This document shows, in pieces, positions 1 through 29,036 of a stretch of 32,000 bases of DNA. Location: assembly GCA_002713205.1 (NCBI GenBank), contig PAVW01000006.1, positions 39,180-71,179 on the forward strand, written 5' to 3'. How positions within the stretch are numbered: the first letter of the stretch is position 1; each line of letters begins with the position of its first letter. The position numbers were made by a program, and so were the translations under genes. The notes beneath the pieces are model-generated. The model saw only the letters and a program-made list of their open reading frames with translations, ran no database searches and had not been told where the DNA came from. The DNA comes from Nitrososphaerota archaeon (GTDB lineage: Archaea; Thermoproteota; Nitrososphaeria; Nitrososphaerales; UBA57).

Positions 1-2332
1 TGTCAAAAGATATCTTCTTTTTACCAATAGCAAATAATTGAAGATATTGTATTGCATATTTTGATTTTACAGGTAATTGCGTTGGAAGAACTTTTCCATC
101 TATTTTAATCAATGAAGAAATCAATGGCTCAATATTGATATAATTTAAGATAAATTCATTCATTATCAGATATTTTTTAAGTGTGTTAGTTTCATTTTCA
201 ATAATTTTTATTCCATATTCAATATTAGAGAGTCTATCAGAAACATCATTAAGTACCTGATCATCTAATTTTCCTAAAGATGCTTTAATATCTGAGATTA
301 ACTGTGTATCCTTACCCCAATGAAAATCAGCCGGAATTTTAGAATCATTTCGTTTTTCAAATTCATGTAATAATTGTAATAGTTCTTCAATAACTGTTCG
401 AGTTCCTGATTCAAGGAAAGCTAGCGAATCCATAACATCAGGTAAATAAAGAATCCCGCGAAAAGTTTCAAGATTTTCAAAATCCTTAGAAATTCTTTGA
501 GTAATAAGACCAGTTTCAGTTGTTTTCGGGTCTTTACCTAATGATTCATTTAATGGTAAAACATTAGATTCGTACATCTTAACTGATCGTTTAATCAACT
601 TTTTTAAATTGACAATAGTTTTTTGCATTATTTTCATGTATCTTTGATTTAATGAATTAATTGTTACTAACAATGAATCCAGAGCTTGTTCTCCCTGACC
701 TTGTTGAATGAAATTTTCGCTAATTGAAATAGATGTTGCTTCAAGTGTAGGATCGAAATTTCTTTGTACTACTTTAACAAGTTTATCAGAAATATTAATA
801 GTATTTTGTGATAATTCTAGAAGGAAATTATTTAAATCGTCCTGATGACTAAGAATTATTGTAAAGGCAATTTCTGCATCAGGATCTAAATGTGTTAACT
901 CAATATCAGGTAAATTAACTATTCCCAACTTATTTAAACTATTGAGCAGAGTCTTACTTTTATCTAATTGTCTATTATGATATTCAATTAATTTCTTATG
1001 CAAATTAATTTCATTTTCAGATTGAATAGCTGAAAGTTCATATATTATTTTAACTTTAGAATTTAAAATTTTATAAGATAAAGTATCAACACCATCAAGT
1101 GTAATAAGCAATTCCTCTTTGAATTTGTTAGCTGCAGTAAGTTCAAAATTGATATCAATTCCAGGACAAGCATCTTGAATTTTTTTTATTTTTTCAAAGA
1201 AAGCATCTACTAATAAAGAATGATCTTTACAAACTTTTTTAATTGTTTCATTCAATTGTGCAGATATATATCGTTTGGATAAACTTATTGAACTAACGGA
1301 AAGAATTACGCCAAACCCTCCAGCAGATAAAATAGTTTTTAATGAATTTGAAAAATTAAAACTGGTATAATAATCAAAGGGAATTTGCATGGTCTGTAAT
1401 GGAATAATAAAGAAAATACAGCCTAAAATAATAGTAAATATGAACGAGAAATCCGGAATTTGATTAAGATCAACACCACGTAACTTTAACCAAGGCCATA
1501 TTCTATCCATAATACCAACAACAGAAAATGTGACAAGTAGTAAAAGTGGAATAAATAAAATAACCAACCGATCAATTAATAAAAATAAATAAGGATGAAA
1601 TACGTCATTTTGTACAGTTAAAATTCCTGAAAATAATTCACGAATGACGGGTAAATCAAATGAAGATAACCTAGGATTCTCATTAAAAATCAATTGATTG
1701 AAAAGAGGTAGTGATTCTGAACTCATAATGTGAAAAATTTCTTGTGGATTTAAATTTTCATTAATATTTGCATTATATGCAAAAGAAAGAGCGCCAAAAG
1801 GAATAAGTATCATAAGAAACATAAAACACATTCCTAAATTGCGTAAGAATTCATGGTCTTTTCGAATTAAAACAATCGACAACATTAATGGAATAGAAAT
1901 GAAATAATAAGGAGTTAAAAATAATGCTCCTGATATTAGACCAATAATAGGTGATAACAAATTATTTTTATTAGTAAGAGATCTAACTGTGAATAATCCT
2001 ACAAAAAACAAATTAATTAATAACCACCAGAAAGGGACACTGGTTTGATATAGATAAGCTGGAATGAAAGTAAAAATCGATAGTGAAAATCCTATAAGAG
2101 GAGATCTAAAACCAATAACTGACGTTATAATAGCTATAAGAAATACTATTGGAACCGGATATAAGGGAATTACATACAACAATGTTGCAGTAAGAATAAA
2201 CAAGAGAATAGAAAGAAATACGTTCTGTAGGTTTTTACGGTATTGAATTTCTCGTTCTATTGCATTATCAATAGAAGGCGAGGGCCTTATACCAACTTTG
2301 TCAATAACTGAACTGTTAATGAGAGATGGCAA
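1..2332 (-). CDS. Polytopic membrane protein (about 10 predicted TM helices) with a long alpha-helical, coiled-coil-like cytoplasmic C-terminal region. Partial: the 3' end runs off the window. Not in the supplied ORF track.
   Basis: Hand translation of the minus strand. The frame with codons on + positions 2..4, 5..7 and so on is open from the window edge up to an in-frame TAG at 2437..2435. The first in-frame ATG is at 1885..1883. Clear hydrophobic helices lie upstream of it (NVFLSILLFILTATLLYVIPLY, PVPIVFLIAIITSVIGF, VPFWWLLINLFFVGLFTV). A non-ATG start is therefore implied: TTG 2332..2330, TTG 2383..2381 or GTG 2428..2426. After about aa 400 the product turns hydrophilic and heptad-like (NEINLHKKLIEYHNRQLDKSKTLLNSLNKLG, QRYMKIMQKTIVNLKKLIKRSVKMYE). 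Confidence 0.7.
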   Translation of the reverse strand, partial: MPSLINSSVIDKVGIRPSPSIDNAIEREIQYRKNLQNVFLSILLFILTATLLYVIPLYPVPIVFLIAIITSVIGFRSPLIGFSLSIFTFIPAYLYQTSVPFWWLLINLFFVGLFTVRSLTNKNNLLSPIIGLISGALFLTPYYFISIPLMLSIVLIRKDHEFLRNLGMCFMFLMILIPFGALSFAYNANINENLNPQEIFHIMSSESLPLFNQLIFNENPRLSSFDLPVIRELFSGILTVQNDVFHPYLFLLIDRLVILFIPLLLLVTFSVVGIMDRIWPWLKLRGVDLNQIPDFSFIFTIILGCIFFIIPLQTMQIPFDYYTSFNFSNSLKTILSAGGFGVILSVSSISLSKRYISAQLNETIKKVCKDHSLLVDAFFEKIKKIQDACPGIDINFELTAANKFKEELLITLDGVDTLSYKILNSKVKIIYELSAIQSENEINLHKKLIEYHNRQLDKSKTLLNSLNKLGIVNLPDIELTHLDPDAEIAFTIILSHQDDLNNFLLELSQNTINISDKLVKVVQRNFDPTLEATSISISENFIQQGQGEQALDSLLVTINSLNQRYMKIMQKTIVNLKKLIKRSVKMYESNVLPLNESLGKDPKTTETGLITQRISKDFENLETFRGILYLPDVMDSLAFLESGTRTVIEELLQLLHEFEKRNDSKIPADFHWGKDTQLISDIKASLGKLDDQVLNDVSDRLSNIEYGIKIIENETNTLKKYLIMNEFILNYINIEPLISSLIKIDGKVLPTQLPVKSKYAIQYLQLFAIGKKKISFD

Positions 2333-2363
2333 GGTAGTTTCTACATGTTTTTTATTATCAATA

Positions 2364-5069
2364 CTAAGAATCTGTATCTTCAATCTTTTCTGTAGTAGTA
2401 AGTTGATGATCAGGTGATATGTGAACACCTTGTTCTAATAGAAATGAATGAGAAAGGAGTGTTTCACCTTTTGTTGTTTGGTTGTAAAGTATTCCCATTT
2501 CCTTAAAATTGTCTAAATCCGAAGGAGATGCTTTTGCAGCAATAATGAGAAATCTCATTGTCCAAGGATCATCAGAATCAACTTCTCTAATATAGATGCT
2601 TTTAGATGCATCTTTACTTACATAGCCCGCAAGCATGGTTTTTGCTTCAGAATCTAAATCAGAATCCCAAATACCACGCGGACTAACTACAGTAAACCAC
2701 AGGTAATCAGTGCGATATTTTGAAGTCAACCCGAGAGTAGCAGGAATTCGAAAGATTCCCAAAGCACTTGCTAAATATTCTTTCAAATGTTTGCGATCAA
2801 TAATCTCATTGAGCATATTTTCCTGAGTTAAAGAAGCTTCATCTTCAAGTAAAATACGTTGCATAATTTTTAGTTGTTCACCTTCAGTTAGTTCTGCGAC
2901 ACGATCATAATAACCTCGATCTCTCATAGTTTCATTCATTTTTTCATAGTAAGAATTTTCAAAAGTAGTAGCTTCAGTTAACATTTTTCTATAATTAGAA
3001 GCTACTTCAAATTTTCTTTCAATATTAGTATAAGCAGAGAGTTTATTTTCAAGGATCTGTCTTTCACCACTTACAGCATTAATTTGTTGATCAATAAGAT
3101 GCAATTCATGTTCTAAATCAGAAGATTTACTTTGCATAATTTTTTTGCGCGGTCCTAGAAACCCAAATCGAATCTTTTTTGCCTGTCCACCAACACGATC
3201 TTTTTCCTGGGTTCTACTTTTCTGTTTTATTAATAATGATTCTTCATGTGTACGAAGAGTATCTAATCTTTCAGATATAATACGTTTCATTACTTGACAA
3301 TCACTTAATCGCGCATCAAGAGTTTTAACTTCTAATGAAATAGGGGAAAGAAGAGAAGATAATAAAGCAAAATTAATAACAAGTTCTGGATTAGATATTC
3401 TGGAAACAGATTCTTTCATACGATCATGTAATTCACTCTGATCGAGTTTATCAATAGTTTTAGATAATTTATCGGACAAATTATGAATTTGTAAGTAAAG
3501 TTTCAGACCGTCAAGATAATAATTTATTAATCCAATTAAATTAATTGTATCATTAATAATTTGTAATTGTCGAGGAGTTAAACTTTGAGCACTAGGGAGA
3601 GTTGATTGAAGATCTTCAGTGAGTGTTTTTACTTTTTCTTGTAATTTTTGATAATTTTGAGAGAGATTAAGGCTCAATGAGACCATTTCTTCAGAAAGAG
3701 ATCGTATTCTAGATTCAACTGTGCCGTCTACAGCATTTAATCCTATGGACAAAACAGATTTCGATAAATCCGTGATTAGACTTCTAACTGAATCTTCGAC
3801 CCCTCGAATATGCATAACAAGATCAGCGTCCATAGATGTCCCCTCACCAAGAAAACTCTGTACGGTCGATTCAAACCTTGATTCGTCATAAGTGTTTTTT
3901 TCAATAAGAAGTCGTCGATATATAGATTTTAATTCAAGAAAATCTGAGTCGAAGATTGTTTTCAAACCAAAAGTTTCTTTTGTTCCATTATAAATATCTA
4001 ATTTTTCCCGTCGTAATTCTCGAAGTCTATCGAGTTTATCTAGATAGATTTTTGTGAGATCAATAAATTCAGCAACAGGATAAGAAACTTTTAGAGTTGA
4101 CATAACATTGACCCATTTCCCATCTAAATCAACATTAGAACCAATATTACTAAATAAATCGGCTAAATCAAAGTTTAATGATTTCATTAGAATATCAACA
4201 ATAGCTTCATCAACTAATTTTCTAGCATCTAGTACACTACCAGCTCTGCTATAAGCAGGACCTAAGGACATCATAAGAAATGCAGTAAATGGATTTTGAT
4301 ATGTATCCCCATATTTACTAGTAATTTTATGATTTAATGATCTATCAATTGCAAATTCATGCTCTAACAATGCAGCATAGCTAGCAGCGCCTTTTGCAGG
4401 AGGATCATCACCACTACAAGGCAATATAGTTAAACCAATTATAGGAATTCCACTACCTATTTTTTTACGTAGATGTCGTGTAAAATCTAGTGCAGTGCCA
4501 CTTCCAGAACCACCGCCAAGTCCATAAATAATAAATATAATTGGTTGTACTGTAGAAGTAAAAACATGTTCCTTAAATTTATCCATATAACCATCAACAA
4601 GTTTTAGATGGTGATAATTTAAACCGTATATTGCTTTAGAAAGTGCACGTTTTCTTCCCACACCACCAGCTAAAGGAGGTATTTCCATTGAAGAGGAAAG
4701 CCAAGGAATATAGTTATCTGGTACTTTTACACCTTCTCTTTGTAAAAATTCAGGATAATTTTGGATAAAATCAAACATAGATTCAGGAGTTGGGAATTTC
4801 ATTGTCTTGCTAACCAATTTAATTTTATCAGCAGGAATATTATTAATCTTCAAATCGTCACCAAGTCTCTTATATGCCATATCAAGGCTACGAATGTCGT
4901 GATCAGCAACGTCCAATGATAAGAGAGATACCTTAACCCCTTCAATTTTTAGGAGGTCGATAAGATCAGATTTATTTTTAATAAATGCCTCAATTACATT
5001 AGCACCAGTTCCTCCTAATCCAATTATCTGTATAGAATTCGTATAACTGCGAGCTTTGTTTTCTGACAA
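2364..5069 (-). CDS. Giant FtsZ/tubulin-superfamily GTPase (901 aa) with a coiled-coil region of about 430 aa and a C-terminal beta-rich segment
   Basis: ORF track plus motifs in canonical order. T1 is IIGLGGTGAN (aa 15-24). The T3/H3-like motif is LAGGVGRKRA (aa 133-142, nt 4644..4673), compare FtsZ GAGxNPxxGRxAA. The T4 tubulin signature is GLGGGSGSGT (aa 183-192, nt 4494..4523). T7 is NFDLAD, matching NxDxxD (aa 299-304, nt 4158..4175), compare FtsZ NxDFADV. aa ~335-770 are heptad-rich (LDRLRELRREKLD, SLSEEMVSLSLNLSQNYQKLQEKVKTLTEDLQ, QILENKLSAYTNIERKFE). Confidence 0.8.
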   Translation of the reverse strand: MSENKARSYTNSIQIIGLGGTGANVIEAFIKNKSDLIDLLKIEGVKVSLLSLDVADHDIRSLDMAYKRLGDDLKINNIPADKIKLVSKTMKFPTPESMFDFIQNYPEFLQREGVKVPDNYIPWLSSSMEIPPLAGGVGRKRALSKAIYGLNYHHLKLVDGYMDKFKEHVFTSTVQPIIFIIYGLGGGSGSGTALDFTRHLRKKIGSGIPIIGLTILPCSGDDPPAKGAASYAALLEHEFAIDRSLNHKITSKYGDTYQNPFTAFLMMSLGPAYSRAGSVLDARKLVDEAIVDILMKSLNFDLADLFSNIGSNVDLDGKWVNVMSTLKVSYPVAEFIDLTKIYLDKLDRLRELRREKLDIYNGTKETFGLKTIFDSDFLELKSIYRRLLIEKNTYDESRFESTVQSFLGEGTSMDADLVMHIRGVEDSVRSLITDLSKSVLSIGLNAVDGTVESRIRSLSEEMVSLSLNLSQNYQKLQEKVKTLTEDLQSTLPSAQSLTPRQLQIINDTINLIGLINYYLDGLKLYLQIHNLSDKLSKTIDKLDQSELHDRMKESVSRISNPELVINFALLSSLLSPISLEVKTLDARLSDCQVMKRIISERLDTLRTHEESLLIKQKSRTQEKDRVGGQAKKIRFGFLGPRKKIMQSKSSDLEHELHLIDQQINAVSGERQILENKLSAYTNIERKFEVASNYRKMLTEATTFENSYYEKMNETMRDRGYYDRVAELTEGEQLKIMQRILLEDEASLTQENMLNEIIDRKHLKEYLASALGIFRIPATLGLTSKYRTDYLWFTVVSPRGIWDSDLDSEAKTMLAGYVSKDASKSIYIREVDSDDPWTMRFLIIAAKASPSDLDNFKEMGILYNQTTKGETLLSHSFLLEQGVHISPDHQLTTTEKIEDTDS

Positions 5070-5077
5070 CTATATCA

Positions 5078-6007
5078 CTACTCTAAATGTTCAAGTTCCT
5101 TTTTAATACTTTCAATTTCAGTTGCTAGTTCCTTATCAATTCGTTGTGCGCGAACTAATACAAGATCAAGTCGATTTGCTTTGTCATTCACATAGCTAAC
5201 TAAAAATGAATTTGAAGTACGAGCACGATAAAATAGAAATGCTAGAATTAATGAAATAAGTGCAAAAGAAATAGAAGCTGCCATATACAAAGTTGTAGTC
5301 ATAGGCGGTTCAGGGAAATCAGAATTAGGGATAGTAGAAAGAAGAACAATTGCATCATCATAAAAACCAAAAGAAGTTAATGTCTCTGCTTCATTAACAA
5401 TACTAAGTGCTAATTCAGAATACTTAGCATCCATACTGGTTTCAGATAATATTTTACGTTTATCAGATAACAAATTTTCATAAGTAATAATTGTCTGATC
5501 GGTAATTGTGTAAGTTTTATCATCAAGAATCTCCATAGACTCTAATGAAAGAATCAAAATAGAAAATTGTTGCAAAGAATGAACAGTTTTTTGTATATCT
5601 TGAAGTTGTTGTTCAGTTATATCACCAGGAATCATACCATTGAGAGTAAATTCTGCAATTCCTTCCTTAGCTTGAAACATAATTGATTGTGAACCAGGAG
5701 TCCACGTTGAAGTATCTACACCAGCATAATTATTTTCCAATGTCCAAAATTCATTTCCTGATTTTTCCATACTAGTAGAAAGTAAAATATTATCACTGAG
5801 TGTTGCACCAATTTCTATAGTAAACTTAACAGTATATGCACCACCAGCAACAAGAGACTTGTCTGTAATGTCATTTCCATTTGGATCCAATACAACAAAA
5901 CTAGATAGAACTGCGGGTGCTTGTTCAAAGGAAAGAGGAATTTGAAAACAACAAGTCAATAACAAGAAGAATAATAGTGCAGAAACAAAATTTAATTTTA
6001 AATTCAT
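5078..6007 (-). CDS. Bitopic (type I-like) membrane protein: N-terminal signal/anchor, extracellular beta-rich plus helical domain, C-terminal TM helix, short cytoplasmic coiled-coil tail
   Basis: ORF track. The N-terminus is hydrophobic (MNLKLNFVSALLFFLLLTCCF). A TM helix lies near the C-terminus (LYMAASISFALISLILAFLFY), followed by RARTS and then a charged helical tail (RLDLVLVRAQRIDKELATEIESIKKELEHLE). The stop is 8 nt upstream of the FtsZ-like start codon. Confidence 0.65.
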   Translation of the reverse strand: MNLKLNFVSALLFFLLLTCCFQIPLSFEQAPAVLSSFVVLDPNGNDITDKSLVAGGAYTVKFTIEIGATLSDNILLSTSMEKSGNEFWTLENNYAGVDTSTWTPGSQSIMFQAKEGIAEFTLNGMIPGDITEQQLQDIQKTVHSLQQFSILILSLESMEILDDKTYTITDQTIITYENLLSDKRKILSETSMDAKYSELALSIVNEAETLTSFGFYDDAIVLLSTIPNSDFPEPPMTTTLYMAASISFALISLILAFLFYRARTSNSFLVSYVNDKANRLDLVLVRAQRIDKELATEIESIKKELEHLE

Positions 6008-6025
6008 AATGATGTATGTTTTTAT

Positions 6026-6037
6026 TCAAATATATGT
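6026..6037 (-). promoter_or_regulatory. Candidate archaeal TATA-like element for the three-gene FtsZ-like cassette
   Basis: The minus strand reads ACATATATTTGAATAAAAAC, centred about 25 nt upstream of the ATG at 6007. This fits a leaderless or short-leader archaeal transcript. AT-rich background makes this weak evidence. Confidence 0.3.
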
Positions 6038-6082
6038 TTTAAGTATTTAATGATGAAAATACTGAATTATAGAACTGTCAAT

Positions 6083-6577
6083 CTATTCAATTAACGAAAA
6101 CGCTAATCTAACAGCATCATAAGCGTCATTTGCAACTAAATATCTATGTTCTGCAAATCCAATTGGAGTATTTACGAACCAATCGACAACACCGCCAGTA
6201 TTCTGTATTATAATAACAGGTTTATTTAGATTCAATGCAAGAGAAAGTTCAGAGAGCGTACCCCAACTTCCAGATATACCAATAACTGCATCCGCTACAC
6301 TCACCACAAAAAAATTTCTAATTTTACCAATTGATGTAGGTATACATATATCAATGAATTGATTTGCTGCATTAATATTGTCATCTGGTAATATACCCAC
6401 TGTAATTCCATTGTATTTTTTAGCGCCGCGAGATGCACATTCCATAACACCACCAAGACCACCACAAACAAGTATACCATTCTTTTTCGCAATCTCGATT
6501 CCAACTTTTTCTGCAATATCACTAATGTGAGTTGAAGAAACTTCATTACTTCCACAAACAGCAATTTTTTTTCTCAA
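6083..6577 (-). CDS. LOG / TIGR00725-like (SLOG superfamily) Rossmann-fold nucleotide-binding protein
   Basis: Motifs by eye: KIAVCGS; GILVCGGLGGVMECASRGA; and a PGGxGTxxE-like motif, SGSWGTLSE. Confidence 0.65.
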   Translation of the reverse strand: MRKKIAVCGSNEVSSTHISDIAEKVGIEIAKKNGILVCGGLGGVMECASRGAKKYNGITVGILPDDNINAANQFIDICIPTSIGKIRNFFVVSVADAVIGISGSWGTLSELSLALNLNKPVIIIQNTGGVVDWFVNTPIGFAEHRYLVANDAYDAVRLAFSLIE

Positions 6578-6580
6578 TGA

Positions 6581-7060
6581 CTAATCAGATACACTATATT
6601 TTCCACGATAATAAATTAATGGTTTAGAATTTTTGTTTAGACCTAACTTAATAACTCTACCAACAAAAATATGATGATCTCCTGATAAAAAAACAGAATC
6701 AACTTTACAGTCAATAAAAGCTAAAGCATTAATTAAAACCGGAGATCCACTAGTCCTATATTTCCATAGGTCATCATCAAATCTATTTTCCTTAGTTTTT
6801 GGATCGGCAAATTTTTGGCTAAGATTTTTTTGTTTATCAGTTAAAATATTCACAGTAAAAATTTTACTTTGTTTAATAAGTTTATAAGATTCAGCTTTAG
6901 TGTCAATACAAATTAAAACTAATGGAGGTGTTAAAGAAACGGACGTGAAAGCATTAACTGTTAAGCCATGAATTCTTCCATTTAATGAAGTTGTAACAAT
7001 GGTCACTCCTGTAGCAAAACATCCCAAAACAGTTTTAAATTTTTTAGAAGTAATAGGCAT
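6581..7060 (-). CDS. Flavin reductase-like FMN-binding domain protein
   Basis: Typical family signature FKTVLGCFATGVTIVTT...GLTVNAFTSVSLTPPLVLICID. Size about 160 aa. There is a 3-nt gap to the downstream LOG-like gene. Confidence 0.75.
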   Translation of the reverse strand: MPITSKKFKTVLGCFATGVTIVTTSLNGRIHGLTVNAFTSVSLTPPLVLICIDTKAESYKLIKQSKIFTVNILTDKQKNLSQKFADPKTKENRFDDDLWKYRTSGSPVLINALAFIDCKVDSVFLSGDHHIFVGRVIKLGLNKNSKPLIYYRGKYSVSD

Positions 7061-7145: not shown

Positions 7146-7373
7146 ATGACTCAATGTGTAAAATGTAATTATGATAAAAAAGGCATAGAATCACTCGTTT
7201 TTCAAGGTGAAATCTGGAATAAGATAAGGAATAACATATGCATGGACTGCTGGAGCGAATGGGAAGATGATATGCAAATGAAAGTAATGAATGAATACAC
7301 CTTAGACTTATCAAATAAACAACATAGAAAATATTTAACAGAGAAAATGAAAGAGTTTTTAAGTTTAAATTAA
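7146..7373 (+). CDS. yggX: YggX-family Fe(2+)-trafficking / oxidative-damage protection protein
   Basis: 75 aa. The pattern C..C...........GE.....I.....C..CW.EW......MNE..L.L.....RK.L...M..FL parallels E. coli YggX as recalled from memory. Confidence 0.7.
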   Translation: MTQCVKCNYDKKGIESLVFQGEIWNKIRNNICMDCWSEWEDDMQMKVMNEYTLDLSNKQHRKYLTEKMKEFLSLN

Positions 7374-7374
7374 T

Positions 7375-9657
7375 TCATTGTAATATTTGTTTACGTAAAA
7401 CATTAAGAGCTGAACCTTCTTTGAACCAGTTGATTTGAGATTTAGTGTAAGTATGTTTCAACAAAAGTTTTTCGTGAGTTTTATCTTGATGTTTAACTAT
7501 AGCTTCTAGATTTTGATTTTCACTAAAGTGTTCAAGATCAAGGATGTCAATCAAATCATTTTCTTGAATAACATCATAATTATTTTCATTAACAAATGTA
7601 AGAGTTAAAATTCCTTGTTTTTTAAGATTTGTTTCATGAATACGGGCAAAACTTTTTGCAATAACTACTGTACAGCCAAGATAACGAGGAGACATTGCAG
7701 CATGTTCCCTACTGCTCCCTTCACCATAATTATCTTCACCAATAATCATCCAAGAGATTTTATTTTTCTTATAATATCTGGCAATAGAAGAAAATGCTTC
7801 AATATTTCCTGTAATTTGATTTTTACCCATACCAATGGAATTATGAAAAGAATTTGCAGCACCAATCAATAAATTATCACTAATGTTATCTAGATGACCA
7901 CGAAACTTCAACCAAGAACCTGCTGGAGATATATGATCTGTTGTGCATTTACCTTTTATTTTTCCTAAAATGATTAAATTAGAATAATTTTTACTGTTCC
8001 ATGAATCAAATTGGTCTAAGACCTGCAACCTTTTACTATTTTTAGCGATGAGTATTTCAAATTCTGATTTATTAGATTGTGGAGGTATATACAAATCACT
8101 AGACCAAACAAACCCGTTTTTTGGTATATCAGAAACCGGAGGAGGCGGTTTTAATTTAAATTTAGAACCATCATTAGCAATGAGATAATCTTTAGTTGGA
8201 TTGAATGATAATCGACCTGCAAGAGATAATGCAACTACTATTTCAGGACTAGCCATGAAACTCATAGTTTCTCTACTGCCATCATTTCGCCCAGGAAAAT
8301 TTCTATTAAAGGATGTAAGAATAGTATTTTTCTGATTTTTTATTTCAGGTCTATTCCATTGACCAATACAAGGGCCACAAGCATTAGCAAGTACAGTAGC
8401 GCCAATTGATTCAAGATTATACAATTGCCCATCTCGTTCAATTGTAGCTCGAATTTGTTCTGAACCAGGGGTAATTAATAAAGGAACGGATGTTTTAATA
8501 TTCTTATCAACTGCTTGTAGAGCTATGCTTGATACTCTTCCCATATCTTCATACGACGAATTAGTACAACTTCCAATAAGCCCAACTGAAATTTCATCAA
8601 TATAATCATTAGTACGGACATCATCAGCAAGTTGAGAAATAGGGCGAGCTAGATCAGGAGTATGCGGGCCAACAACATATGGTTCAAGATCAGATAAGTT
8701 GATTTCAATAACCCTTTTAAAATATTTGGTAGGATTATTTTCAATTTCTTTGTCAATAGTAAAAAGATTATAATATTTATTGATAAGATTAGAAATTGAT
8801 TTTCGATTTGTGTGATTAAGATAATTTATCATGGTTTCATCTAAAGGAAAAATAGAAGAAGTAGCACCAATTTCAGCTCCCATATTTGTAATAGTTGCTT
8901 TACCAGTGCAGCTAATTGATTTTGTTCCAGGACCAAAATATTCAATAATGCAATTTGTTGCACCTGAAACAGTTAAGATAGATGTGAGATATAGAATTAT
9001 ATCCTTAGGAGAAGTCCAGCCATTTAATTCACCAGTCAGATATACACCAATTCGCTCAGGATACAAAATTTCCCAATTAAATCCTGCCATAACTTCGGAC
9101 GCATCTATACCTCCTACACCAATACCCATCATTCCTAAACCACCAGAATTTGGTGTATGTGAATCGGTGCCAATAATTAGACCTCCAGGAAATGCATAAT
9201 TTTCAAGTAAAACTTGATGTATTATACCAGCACCTGGTTTCCAAAATCCGATACCAAATTTCTTAGATGCTGATTCAAGAAATTTATACACTTCATTGTT
9301 TTCAAAAAGAGCTCGTTTGATATCAGAGCTAGCTGAGACCTTAGCCTGAATTAAATGATCACAATGTAGGGTAGTAGGAACTAATACTTTAGAAAGTTTA
9401 GATTGCATAAATTGTAAGAGAACCATCTGCCCAGAAGCATCTTGTAATGCTACTCTGTCAGGTTTTATAAATATATAATCGCGACCAGGGGTAAGAGAAT
9501 CAAATTTAGGTTCAGATAAATGTCCAATAAAAAGTTTTTCAGCAAGTGTAAGTGGTTTGGAATCATATTCTTGAAATTTCTGAATATTTAATTGTATTTT
9601 ATCGTAAATCCCTTTAATTAATGATATAGGAGTCATATCTTGCATTTTACTAATCAA
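7375..9657 (-). CDS. acn: Aconitate hydratase (mitochondrial-type aconitase, about 760 aa)
   Basis: Fe-S ligand motifs IGSCTNSSYEDM and ANACGPCIGQW. Also HCDHLI, GTDSHT and a C-terminal swivel domain (GEDNYGEGSSREHAA). Confidence 0.92.
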   Translation of the reverse strand: MISKMQDMTPISLIKGIYDKIQLNIQKFQEYDSKPLTLAEKLFIGHLSEPKFDSLTPGRDYIFIKPDRVALQDASGQMVLLQFMQSKLSKVLVPTTLHCDHLIQAKVSASSDIKRALFENNEVYKFLESASKKFGIGFWKPGAGIIHQVLLENYAFPGGLIIGTDSHTPNSGGLGMMGIGVGGIDASEVMAGFNWEILYPERIGVYLTGELNGWTSPKDIILYLTSILTVSGATNCIIEYFGPGTKSISCTGKATITNMGAEIGATSSIFPLDETMINYLNHTNRKSISNLINKYYNLFTIDKEIENNPTKYFKRVIEINLSDLEPYVVGPHTPDLARPISQLADDVRTNDYIDEISVGLIGSCTNSSYEDMGRVSSIALQAVDKNIKTSVPLLITPGSEQIRATIERDGQLYNLESIGATVLANACGPCIGQWNRPEIKNQKNTILTSFNRNFPGRNDGSRETMSFMASPEIVVALSLAGRLSFNPTKDYLIANDGSKFKLKPPPPVSDIPKNGFVWSSDLYIPPQSNKSEFEILIAKNSKRLQVLDQFDSWNSKNYSNLIILGKIKGKCTTDHISPAGSWLKFRGHLDNISDNLLIGAANSFHNSIGMGKNQITGNIEAFSSIARYYKKNKISWMIIGEDNYGEGSSREHAAMSPRYLGCTVVIAKSFARIHETNLKKQGILTLTFVNENNYDVIQENDLIDILDLEHFSENQNLEAIVKHQDKTHEKLLLKHTYTKSQINWFKEGSALNVLRKQILQ

Positions 9658-28807: not shown

Positions 28808-28868
28808 TATTTTGCAAACAACCACATATCCATTATATTTAATACGAGTTTTTGACATGAAATTTTAT

Positions 28869-28953
28869 GCGGGGGTCGCCCAGCCCGGTCAAAGGCGTAG
28901 GATTTAGGCTCCTATCTCTCAGGAGTTCGTGGGTTCAAATCCCACCTCCCGCA
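28869..28953 (+). tRNA. tRNA-Leu(UAG): tRNA-Leu, anticodon UAG (class II, long variable arm), no intron, CCA not encoded
   Basis: Folded by hand. The acceptor stem is GCGGGGG/CTCCCGC (one G-U pair) with discriminator A. The anticodon stem is TAGGA/TCCTA with loop TTTAGGC (anticodon at 28905..28907). The variable arm is about 14 nt. The T arm is GTGGG-TTCAAAT-CCCAC. A T-rich tract follows. Confidence 0.9.
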
Positions 28954-29036
28954 TTTATTTAATATTTTTTCAATGTGTAAAAATAACTTTGAATACAGAA
29001 CATTTATTCAAGAGAATCACGAGTAAATTCTAGACA

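Follow-up and report, generated by a model that had tools for sequence, protein, structure and literature searches.

What does a 901-residue relative of tubulin and FtsZ do in an archaeon, between two membrane proteins, and which other proteins belong with it? The question is raised by the first 6007 positions of a 32,000-nucleotide stretch of DNA from a Nitrososphaerota archaeon (positions 39,180 to 71,179 of contig PAVW01000006.1, assembly GCA_002713205.1; the whole stretch is called here the window), in which three genes, named here A, B and C, follow one another on the minus strand. An earlier inspection of the letters alone (the sequence-only reading) took them for a three-gene cassette built around B, but that unit is incomplete: the genes are part of a five-gene module, A to E, of which the window holds A, B and C, while D and E adjoin just beyond its position 1. 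The central product, B, is, as judged from its predicted structure, a tubulin/FtsZ-fold guanosine triphosphatase (GTPase) of the Tubulin_2 (FtsZl1) class, and we give an even chance to the idea that, together with A, C, D and E, it makes up a membrane-tethered GTPase assembly that shapes or remodels the membrane or the envelope.

Fold and conserved motifs of B

Both domain profiles and structure prediction place B in the tubulin superfamily. The FtsZ-like family, which the sequence-only reading had named only as a target for testing, is the one whose threshold B passes, with 40.1 bits against the Pfam model PF13809 (Tubulin_2; cut-off 27; model positions 2-208 of 356 covered), and whose FtsZl1 layout it shares. 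PF00091, on the other hand, is narrowly missed (28.7 bits, cut-off 33), and no Pfam match to PF12327 (FtsZ_C) or Tubulin_C was found in B or in 25 sampled homologues, all 25 of which match both PF13809 (best E=4.7e-18) and PF00091. Since B reaches 20.1 bits against TIGR00065, whose cut-off is 295, lacks an FtsZ_C match and has 901 residues against the roughly 350-400 of FtsZ, it is classed as something other than a canonical FtsZ.

The AlphaFold2 (AF2) model of B, made with 103 homologues, has a mean predicted local distance difference test score (pLDDT) of 90.7 and a predicted template modelling score (pTM) of 0.79. The best 50 PDB matches that Foldseek lists for it by E-value are all CetZ1/2, TubZ, BtubA, FtsZ or tubulin (E from 1.9e-7 to 1.3e-4, probability 1.00, alignments of about 330-370 columns), with CetZ1 (4b46) at E=1.9e-7 and a target-normalised TM-score of 0.54. 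Structure prediction was needed to place the domain, because the family profile of B, searched against PDB sequences, reached only the T4 loop of CetZ1 (4b46 at E=8e-4). The sequence-only reading had made its case depend on whether the N-terminal 330 or so residues belong to the tubulin/FtsZ fold, and the PF13809 score, the model and the Foldseek matches all put them there.

In the model, strands at residues 12-18, 47-53, 83-89, 176-183, 210-216 and 263-268, with helices between them, lead to H7 (279-297) and H8 (302-309), after which come a single strand (320-329) and a helical stalk. This stalk covers residues 332-714, about 380 residues and not the roughly 430 heptad-rich ones claimed from the letters, and its long helices (499-540, 546-572, 577-632 and 636-687) have weak coiled-coil-type matches only, both in Pfam and in the PDB. 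The distal domain (720-895) has strands at 790-796, 825-831 and 837-847 and the invariant residues W791, P797, W801 and W836, and its strand-helix-strand-strand order, as assigned by DSSP on the model, would be compatible with the tubulin C-terminal domain.

The nucleotide-binding and polymerisation motifs listed in the sequence-only reading are all present, namely IIGLGGTGAN (residues 15-24), LAGGVGRKRA (133-142), GLGGGSGSGT (183-192) and NFDLAD (299-304), and their conservation was scored over 103 homologues of 34-92% identity. G17, G19 and G22 of T1 are invariant, as are G135, G136, R139 and R141 of the T3-like segment and P217, C218 and D221 of a further element, PCxGDDPPAKG; in T4, G183, G185-G187, G189, S190 and G191 are at least 90% conserved, and the region aligns in profile searches to T4 of CetZ1 and FtsZ, and also to PF00091. 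The last motif had been taken for an apparently intact T7 synergy motif NxDxxD, and that part of the claim needs correcting: F300 and D301 never vary and D304 reaches at least 90% conservation, but N299 is not conserved, the conserved form being xFDxxD. Of the 82 B open reading frames (ORFs) from genomic loci, 78 carry GGG[ST]GSG and 79 carry FDxxD. In the AF2 model FDxxD lies between H7 and H8, which is the T7 position, and both its place and its D-x-x-D spacing match those of NxDxxD, the Asn apart, in a comparison made without residue-level superposition. We infer that FDxxD may be a T7-like loop that activates the GTPase of the neighbouring subunit.

The five-gene module across genomes

A search for relatives of B gives 340 homologues at E<=1e-3, and a scan of one genome per GTDB species finds them in the genomes of 288 species. 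The best 80 loci of these 288 species were analysed, and all of them come from metagenome-assembled genomes (MAGs) of Thaumarchaeota/Nitrososphaeria, Dehalococcoidia/Chloroflexota and Bathyarchaeia. In these 80 loci BLAST and jackhmmer were used to find the homologues of A, C, D and E, and presence was counted over the 43 non-redundant loci whose flanking DNA was long enough. Each of A, C and E occurs in 42 of these 43, and D in 30; the genes are co-directional with small gaps or overlaps, the median A-B gap being 0 nucleotides. The gene order is A+ B+ C+ D- E+ F- in the window's clade, A+ B+ C+ D+ E+ in Dehalococcoidia, A+ B+ E- C+ (D+) in Bathyarchaeia and C+ E+ A+ B+ in a second Nitrososphaeria clade. 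Because the same proteins recur in the same arrangement in dozens of genomes, their grouping is not due to chance, and the synteny in related genomes on which the sequence-only reading had staked its proposal is borne out by the counts for A and C.

On contigs with an identical B gene, C is followed by D (316 residues, on the opposite strand), E (473 residues) and F (1476 residues); the module A-E measures about 8.4 kilobases, or about 13 with F, which is specific to the clade. The same gene set is found in a 61%-identical freshwater relative (L005), and in a Dehalococcoidia MAG (L007) the genes form one co-directional string A-B-C-D-E. F, which adjoins the module beyond window position 1 (L001:12716-17146, minus strand), encodes a predicted surface protein with a signal peptide, a Big_1 Ig-like domain, a transglutaminase core and a C-terminal transmembrane (TM) anchor, and occurs only in the window's thaumarchaeal clade, in 9 of the 43 loci. 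Two further observations concern B itself: at one locus (L008:10001-12865) its gene stands alone, without A, C or E, beside an Orc1/Cdc6 gene, and some bathyarchaeial B proteins (P0091, P0096) have an extra C-terminal zinc-ribbon-like tail of the form CxxC...CxxC.

The partner proteins

The two neighbours of B had been described as membrane proteins, one bitopic with an outer domain and the other polytopic with a helical rod, and the predictions agree with this. For A, hydropathy and the distribution of Lys and Arg point to a signal or anchor helix (residues 7-25), about 214 residues outside, a TM helix (240-258) and a 51-residue basic cytoplasmic helix. That cytoplasmic tail is the best-conserved part of the A family, with the motif RAR...DQAKxLDxLxxRASRIDKxLxxxIExIK in a 20-sequence alignment, and no relative of A was found in Pfam, NCBIfam, PADLOC or the PDB. 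C would have 8-10 TM helices within residues 40-370 and then about 435 residues of long helices, in keeping with the ten or so TM helices and the more than 370 residues of cytoplasmic helical sequence read from the letters. Its AF2 model is all-helical (pLDDT 86.9), with the last TM helix running on into the cytoplasm (residues 344-405) and with rod helices of 35-50 residues. C has no Pfam, NCBIfam or PADLOC match and no significant fold match in the PDB (best E=0.35), and it has 58 relatives among 1.84 billion representative proteins; judging from these relatives, it hardly occurs outside this module. The idea that C contains a Walker-type GTPase, such as was described for neighbours of archaeal FtsZl1, finds no support in any Pfam match and was set aside.

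D begins with a domain of about 90 residues that has sub-threshold PH, GRAM and bPH matches and is probably PH-like, and continues with a helical region. E, of about 450 residues, is predicted to be a second CetZ/tubulin-like protein. The E of the Dehalococcoidia MAG mentioned above matches PF00091 at 42.7 bits, above the cut-off, and the family profile finds AtubB2 (5.6e-11), CetZ1 (1.2e-10, over the GTPase domain), BtubB, Odin FtsZ1 and TubZ; B and E align to each other over S4-T4-H5 only (hhalign, E=1.8e-5), and a homologue search with the E alignment gave 60 close relatives only. The thaumarchaeal and Dehalococcoidia forms of E, i.e., those of two of the three host groups, carry an N-terminal zinc ribbon, and at the C-terminus there is an invariant SDRxDxxLLLGG element, which we take to resemble the strand-GG-helix element of the FtsZ C-terminal domain. 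Most Dehalococcoidia and the second Nitrososphaeria clade have an E with a canonical, GGGTGSG-like T4 loop; the loop has been replaced in the window's clade (e.g., LLGEPLVSA) and in all Bathyarchaeia, where T1 has decayed as well. In one E protein (L009:12701-14038, minus strand) three tandem copies of a 17-residue repeat, KPEPDVAEKVEADTVLA, stand at the N-terminus in place of the zinc ribbon.

Comparison with known tubulin-family systems

To which of the known branches is this system closest? PF13809 stands for the FtsZ-like sequences that Makarova and Koonin described in 2010 as FtsZl1 (PMC2875224), and the layout reported for one of them, Huta_2051, is an FtsZ-like domain at the N-terminus, a long helical or coiled-coil region and a C-terminal globular domain (PMC2875224). 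B has the same three parts (residues 10-330, 332-714 and 720-895), and, like B, FtsZl1/Tubulin_2 proteins have membrane-protein neighbours and coexist with other division systems. The differences are several. The C-terminal domain of FtsZl1 was called 'mostly alpha-helical', whereas that of B is predicted to be alpha/beta. The operon partners of FtsZl1 are a vWA protein and often a divergent P-loop GTPase, a Ser/Thr kinase or an OmpA protein (PMC2875224), whereas B is accompanied by A, C, D and a second tubulin-like protein, E, and Pfam searches gave no vWA, P-loop, kinase or OmpA match in A, C, D, E or F. FtsZl1 at large was reported without T6-H7, whereas the B subfamily has a conserved H7-FDxxD-H8 element, and the hosts of B (heterotrophic marine Thaumarchaeota, HMT; Bathyarchaeia; Dehalococcoidia) lie outside the FtsZl1 sampling of 2010. 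Since the vWA-type partner set is missing, yet association with partners is not a strict definition, we have filed B as a distinct subfamily of Tubulin_2.

Bacterial proteins annotated as 'tubulin-like domain-containing' are 26-30% identical to B over residues 12-296/325, and short members of about 510 residues occur on plasmids, such as pRHL2 of Rhodococcus jostii RHA1 (L090:8860-10404) and p3 of Brucella anthropi (L091:8857-10380), in clusters with aliphatic amidase, CbtA/CbtB or nickel transporter and CbbQ/NorD (MoxR-vWA) genes. The plasmid proteins were rejected as carriers of the same system, since they form a different, short subfamily in amidase and cobalt clusters, and these clusters look like a different, uncharacterised Tubulin_2 system. 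They align to B over residues 12-325, without stalk and FDxxD, and their last C-terminal element (HAWLLDLG, HALLLDQG) is collinear with that of B (HSFLLEQG) in a weak alignment. As such stalk-less proteins share with B the GTPase domain and, at low scores, this last element, the alignments suggest that the stalk of B is an insertion into a Tubulin_2 core.

Among proteins of determined structure, CetZ1 and CetZ2 (4b46, 4b45) are the best structural matches of B, and CetZ1 is also among the best profile matches of E. The identity to B is 15-17%, however, at the target-normalised TM-score of about 0.54 given above, and CetZ has about 350-400 residues with a contiguous C-terminal domain and no stalk, whereas B has 901 and a stalk; B is by this comparison not a member of the CetZ clade. 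CetZ is nonetheless a precedent, a tubulin-family protein of archaea whose action is on cell shape and not on division, and we know of no dedicated membrane-protein operon for it. The paired tubulins (alpha/beta, BtubA/B, AtubA/B) offer another likeness, in that two paralogues of the superfamily are encoded together and in some lineages the nucleotide site of one partner is dispensable or degenerate. Unlike them, B and E differ twofold in size and are far more divergent from each other, E bears its zinc ribbon in two of the three host groups, and the B/E pairing is known from the genes alone.

A tubulin-superfamily protein is already familiar from Thaumarchaeota, the FtsZ homologue of Nitrosopumilus, Nmar_1262, and for this type no division role has been found. 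In Nmar_1262 the T4 loop is replaced by AGKAGSA and T7 is missing, unlike in B with its GGGSGSG and FDxxD, and HMT genomes have a separate listed ftsZ; the possibility that B or E is an Nmar_1262-type FtsZ was rejected on these two grounds. The localisation of the Nitrosopumilus FtsZ, which the sequence-only reading had cited, is therefore irrelevant to B, as B and E are different proteins.

In reviews and phylogenies as late as 2023-2026, Tubulin_2 proteins figure as uncharacterised outliers. Santana-Molina et al. report sparse 'CetZ-like' sequences in Dehalococcoidia, without a link to Tubulin_2, and these may be E. Neither a description of the module nor experimental work on it was found in the literature searched, nor a demonstrated function for the B family, which had indeed been presented as uncharacterised.

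A membrane-tethered assembly or a switch?

How could the five proteins work together? GTP-bound B would self-associate head to tail, the FDxxD loop of one subunit completing the nucleotide site of the next, and the partner subunit could be another B or E. The assembly would lie at the cytoplasmic face of the membrane, held there by the basic cytoplasmic helix of A and by the rod of C, which would dock on the stalk of B and is similar to it in helix length. D would add a contact with membrane or protein through its probable PH-like domain, and the outer domain of A would link the machine to the cell envelope, as F may do in the window's clade. E would serve as a GTPase partner where its T4 is intact (Dehalococcoidia), and as a structural, nucleotide-independent partner in the window's clade and in Bathyarchaeia. 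The role of the whole would be a GTP-controlled shaping of the membrane or envelope, comparable to that of CetZ rather than to an FtsZ ring. The hosts are monoderm and S-layer-bearing, and Dehalococcoides has been reported to be devoid of peptidoglycan; that an envelope-linked role fits such hosts is a speculation.

Several points weigh against this proposal. The T7-equivalent region of E is not conserved, and the contacts of B with A, C and E are deduced from gene linkage only. Experiments on GTP binding, hydrolysis or polymerisation were found in the literature for no Tubulin_2 protein, and Makarova and Koonin, who did not find T6-H7 in FtsZl1, mentioned, as the less likely case, that these proteins form no filaments (PMC2875224). 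The GTP-driven filament or stalk machine proposed in the sequence-only reading is thus still a hypothesis, the more so as the stalk of B stands between H8 and the place of any canonical C-terminal domain. The distribution of the module, patchy and marked by transfer between domains, is typical too of accessory or conflict systems, which are taken up below.

The first of the alternatives follows the non-filament idea. B could be a non-polymerising GTPase switch or a mechanochemical dimer, dynamin/BDLP- or SMC-like, that acts on A and C, e.g., by gating C, a possibility to be taken seriously although we consider it unlikely. Its appeal lies in the architecture: the stalk of about 380 residues keeps the GTPase and C-terminal domains of B apart, so that H8 does not run on directly into the canonical tubulin C-terminal domain, which makes one half of the longitudinal interface, and C has a long helical rod of a similar kind; one C homologue even gave a stray Dynamin_M match, which at E=0.0098 is not significant. 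What speaks for polymers instead is the conserved FDxxD at the T7 position, most simply explained as trans-activation of the GTPase of a neighbour, a hallmark of tubulin polymers, although a closed head-to-tail dimer or a B-E dimer would satisfy it as well. Moreover, the best 50 PDB matches listed reveal no likeness of B, in sequence or in fold, to the heads of dynamin or SMC.

Host, genomic context and transfer between domains

The closest genomes to the window include the MAG ASW8, which belongs to HMT, a group that is sister to the ammonia oxidisers and has genomes of some 0.8-1.05 megabases (Mb). The host itself is a thaumarchaeon of this heterotrophic marine group (pSL12-like lineage), its genome measures about 1 Mb, and it is neither an ammonia oxidiser nor a Nitrosopumilus. 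The genes of the module have in fact been listed before: Data Set S3 of PMC7300363 (gained_in_hmt) contains groups of 307 residues, Tubulin_2 with 898, 788 residues, 327 residues and Tubulin with 456, whose sizes, domains and order of genes correspond to A, B, C, D and E, and which are given there as gained on the branch to HMT, without functional comment. The same study lists for HMT CdvABC and also a separate ftsZ whose identity to the Nitrosopelagicus protein is 29%, and its 'FtsZ-based division system' of HMT rests on that separate gene, ATL_02140 (PMC7300363).

Within each host phylum the module is present only in some lineages, and in a rough neighbour-joining tree the window's clade stands beside one Dehalococcoidia clade. 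Since the B of the window is closer to the copies of Dehalococcoidia (about 52% identity) than to those of Bathyarchaeia (35-41%), tree and identities indicate a transfer of the whole module between domains. A B gene with the bathyarchaeial gene order also occurs in a Candidatus Limnocylindrales MAG of Chloroflexota (L062:10001-12607), nested inside the Bathyarchaeia clade, which reflects either another transfer between domains or an error in binning.

Could the module be a conflict system (anti-virus or abortive-infection) or an accessory one, in which B and E act as sensor or switch and control membrane-disrupting A and C? The patchy distribution and the transfer between domains would suit such a system, as would the listing of all five genes as gained on the HMT branch, the decay of E to a pseudo-GTPase in some lineages, and the position of other Tubulin_2 genes beside vWA, kinase and GTPase genes or on plasmids. 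Against it stand the searches, as PADLOC-DB 2.0 has no match for A-E (for F only a marginal UzuA, E=0.012), a scan of viral contigs gave no relative of B, and no nuclease, protease or toxin domain was found by Pfam. B is also too conserved for a fast-evolving defence gene, with a mean column identity of 53% over 900 residues. Furthermore, the remainder of the window is housekeeping (aconitase, Lhr helicase, malic enzyme, a primase-like Toprim protein, an eRF1/Pelota-like protein, TtuA, tRNA-Leu), no sign of a mobile element was seen around the module there (Iron_traffic, aconitase and tRNA-Leu context), and the module is kept in all sampled members of the window's clade, whose genomes are streamlined to about 1 Mb. 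Since its neighbours are housekeeping genes, PADLOC and viral relatives are lacking, and it is kept in such small genomes, the module does not look like an accessory island, and we hold the conflict reading to be very improbable. A phage origin of B, from a PhuZ- or TubZ-like protein, was rejected for want of any viral-contig relative.

The least probable reading of all makes the module the division machinery of the host or an essential part of it, B and E acting as a divergent counterpart of the Z-ring that A and C would tether. A tubulin-family system with membrane tethers would be analogous to FtsZ with FtsA, ZipA, SepF or EzrA, and reduced genomes have kept this one. On the other side, CdvABC and a distinct FtsZ homologue are also encoded in HMT genomes, the ammonia oxidisers of the sister group lack the module (it being listed as gained in HMT), only some lineages of each host phylum have it, and Makarova and Koonin argued in the same way against a division role for FtsZl1 in general (PMC2875224).

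Layout of the locus

The coordinates of the features are given in Table 1. The three head-to-tail genes of the minus strand are confirmed by the ORF list, with A and B exactly at the positions claimed from the letters, and the 8-nucleotide gap between them holds as well (5070-5077). The start of C had been left between 31 nucleotides downstream of the B stop and a 65-nucleotide overlap with B, which is the range of its candidate starts: GTG 2428 (65-nucleotide overlap), TTG 2383 (20-nucleotide overlap) and TTG 2332 (31 nucleotides downstream). The gene caller on a contig with the identical B gene (L001) chose TTG 2383, for a full length of 806 residues, of which 794 would be inside the window, where the ORF leaves at position 2. 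TTG 2332 is slightly favoured as the start, because a C representative that is 86% identical (P0181) starts at the residue matching it.

The A+T-rich spacer of 75 nucleotides upstream of A, with its TATA-like element, was also found as described: the element, ATATATTT, lies about 24 nucleotides before the ATG of A, and the spacer is a possible promoter of A, for which a TATA-like sequence is weak evidence because the DNA is 70% A+T. Directly upstream of A, on the same strand, come a gene for a SLOG-cluster4 (LDcluster4) protein (6083-6577, minus strand) and a flavin reductase gene (6581-7060, minus strand), which accompany the module in near-identical contigs (L001, L002 and L004). They were rejected as members of the module, being unlinked in the 61%-identical freshwater relative and in other clades, and are probably unrelated neighbours.

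Table 1. Features of the window, with positions in window coordinates.
Feature	Position	Strand	Basis or remark
Gene C, polytopic membrane protein with long helical cytoplasmic rod (predicted)	2..2383	(-)	cut by window end
C, predicted transmembrane region, residues ~60-370, with ~70-residue loop between TM5 and TM6	1274..2206	(-)	hydropathy, AF2
Gene B, 901-residue Tubulin_2/FtsZl1-class protein	2364..5069	(-)	ORF; TTG start
B, predicted C-terminal alpha/beta domain, residues 720-895	2385..2912	(-)	AF2 DSSP
B, predicted all-helical stalk, residues 332-714	2928..4076	(-)	AF2 DSSP; pLDDT mostly >85
B, predicted tubulin/FtsZ-fold GTPase domain, residues 10-330	4080..5042	(-)	S1-S6, H7, T7-like loop, H8, one strand
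B, T7-like motif NFDLAD, residues 299-304, core FDxxD	4158..4175	(-)	between H7 and H8
B, T4 signature GLGGGSGSG, residues 183-191	4497..4523	(-)	at least 90% conserved
B, T1 loop GLGGTGAN, residues 17-24	4998..5021	(-)	103-sequence alignment
Gene A, 309-residue bitopic membrane protein (predicted)	5078..6007	(-)	ORF
A+T-rich spacer, 75 nucleotides, upstream of A	6008..6082	(-)	possible promoter, consensus resemblance only
Iron_traffic (PF04362) small protein	7146-7373	(+)	
Aconitase	7375-9657	(-)	
tRNA-Leu, anticodon TAG	28868-28954	(+)	

Significance

The superfamily and the general idea of 'membrane remodelling' were already known. Tubulin_2/FtsZl1 is the most divergent and least understood branch of the tubulins, for which the prediction of membrane remodelling has stood since 2010, and the B subfamily gives it a testable form, with a fixed list of five proteins, a well-predicted GTPase and a T7-like motif. 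There is also a natural experiment to be exploited, as the GTP site of E, preserved in Dehalococcoidia, has been lost in two archaeal groups. For annotation the module is a likely trap, since FtsZ or tubulin domain matches in these lineages include B and E, neither of which is a canonical FtsZ.

For the hosts, the retention of the module in the streamlined genomes, of about 1 Mb, of abundant deep-ocean archaea suggests that it is important to the cell, and the closeness of the archaeal and Dehalococcoidia copies makes it a clear example of how a multi-protein cytoskeletal or membrane system has passed between domains. A bolder reading, which we regard as distinctly doubtful, is that B and E are the two subunits of an unrecognised membrane-integrated cytoskeleton, a heteropolymer or else a polymer of B that E caps or nucleates. 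In it B would always be the active GTPase and E repeatedly a pseudo-GTPase, and it would be wired through A and C to the envelope, the unit as a whole having passed between archaea (Nitrososphaeria, Bathyarchaeia) and Dehalococcoidia. If this were true, the B/E cytoskeleton would be a third kind of paired tubulin beside alpha/beta-tubulin and BtubAB/AtubAB, and one with its own transmembrane adaptors.

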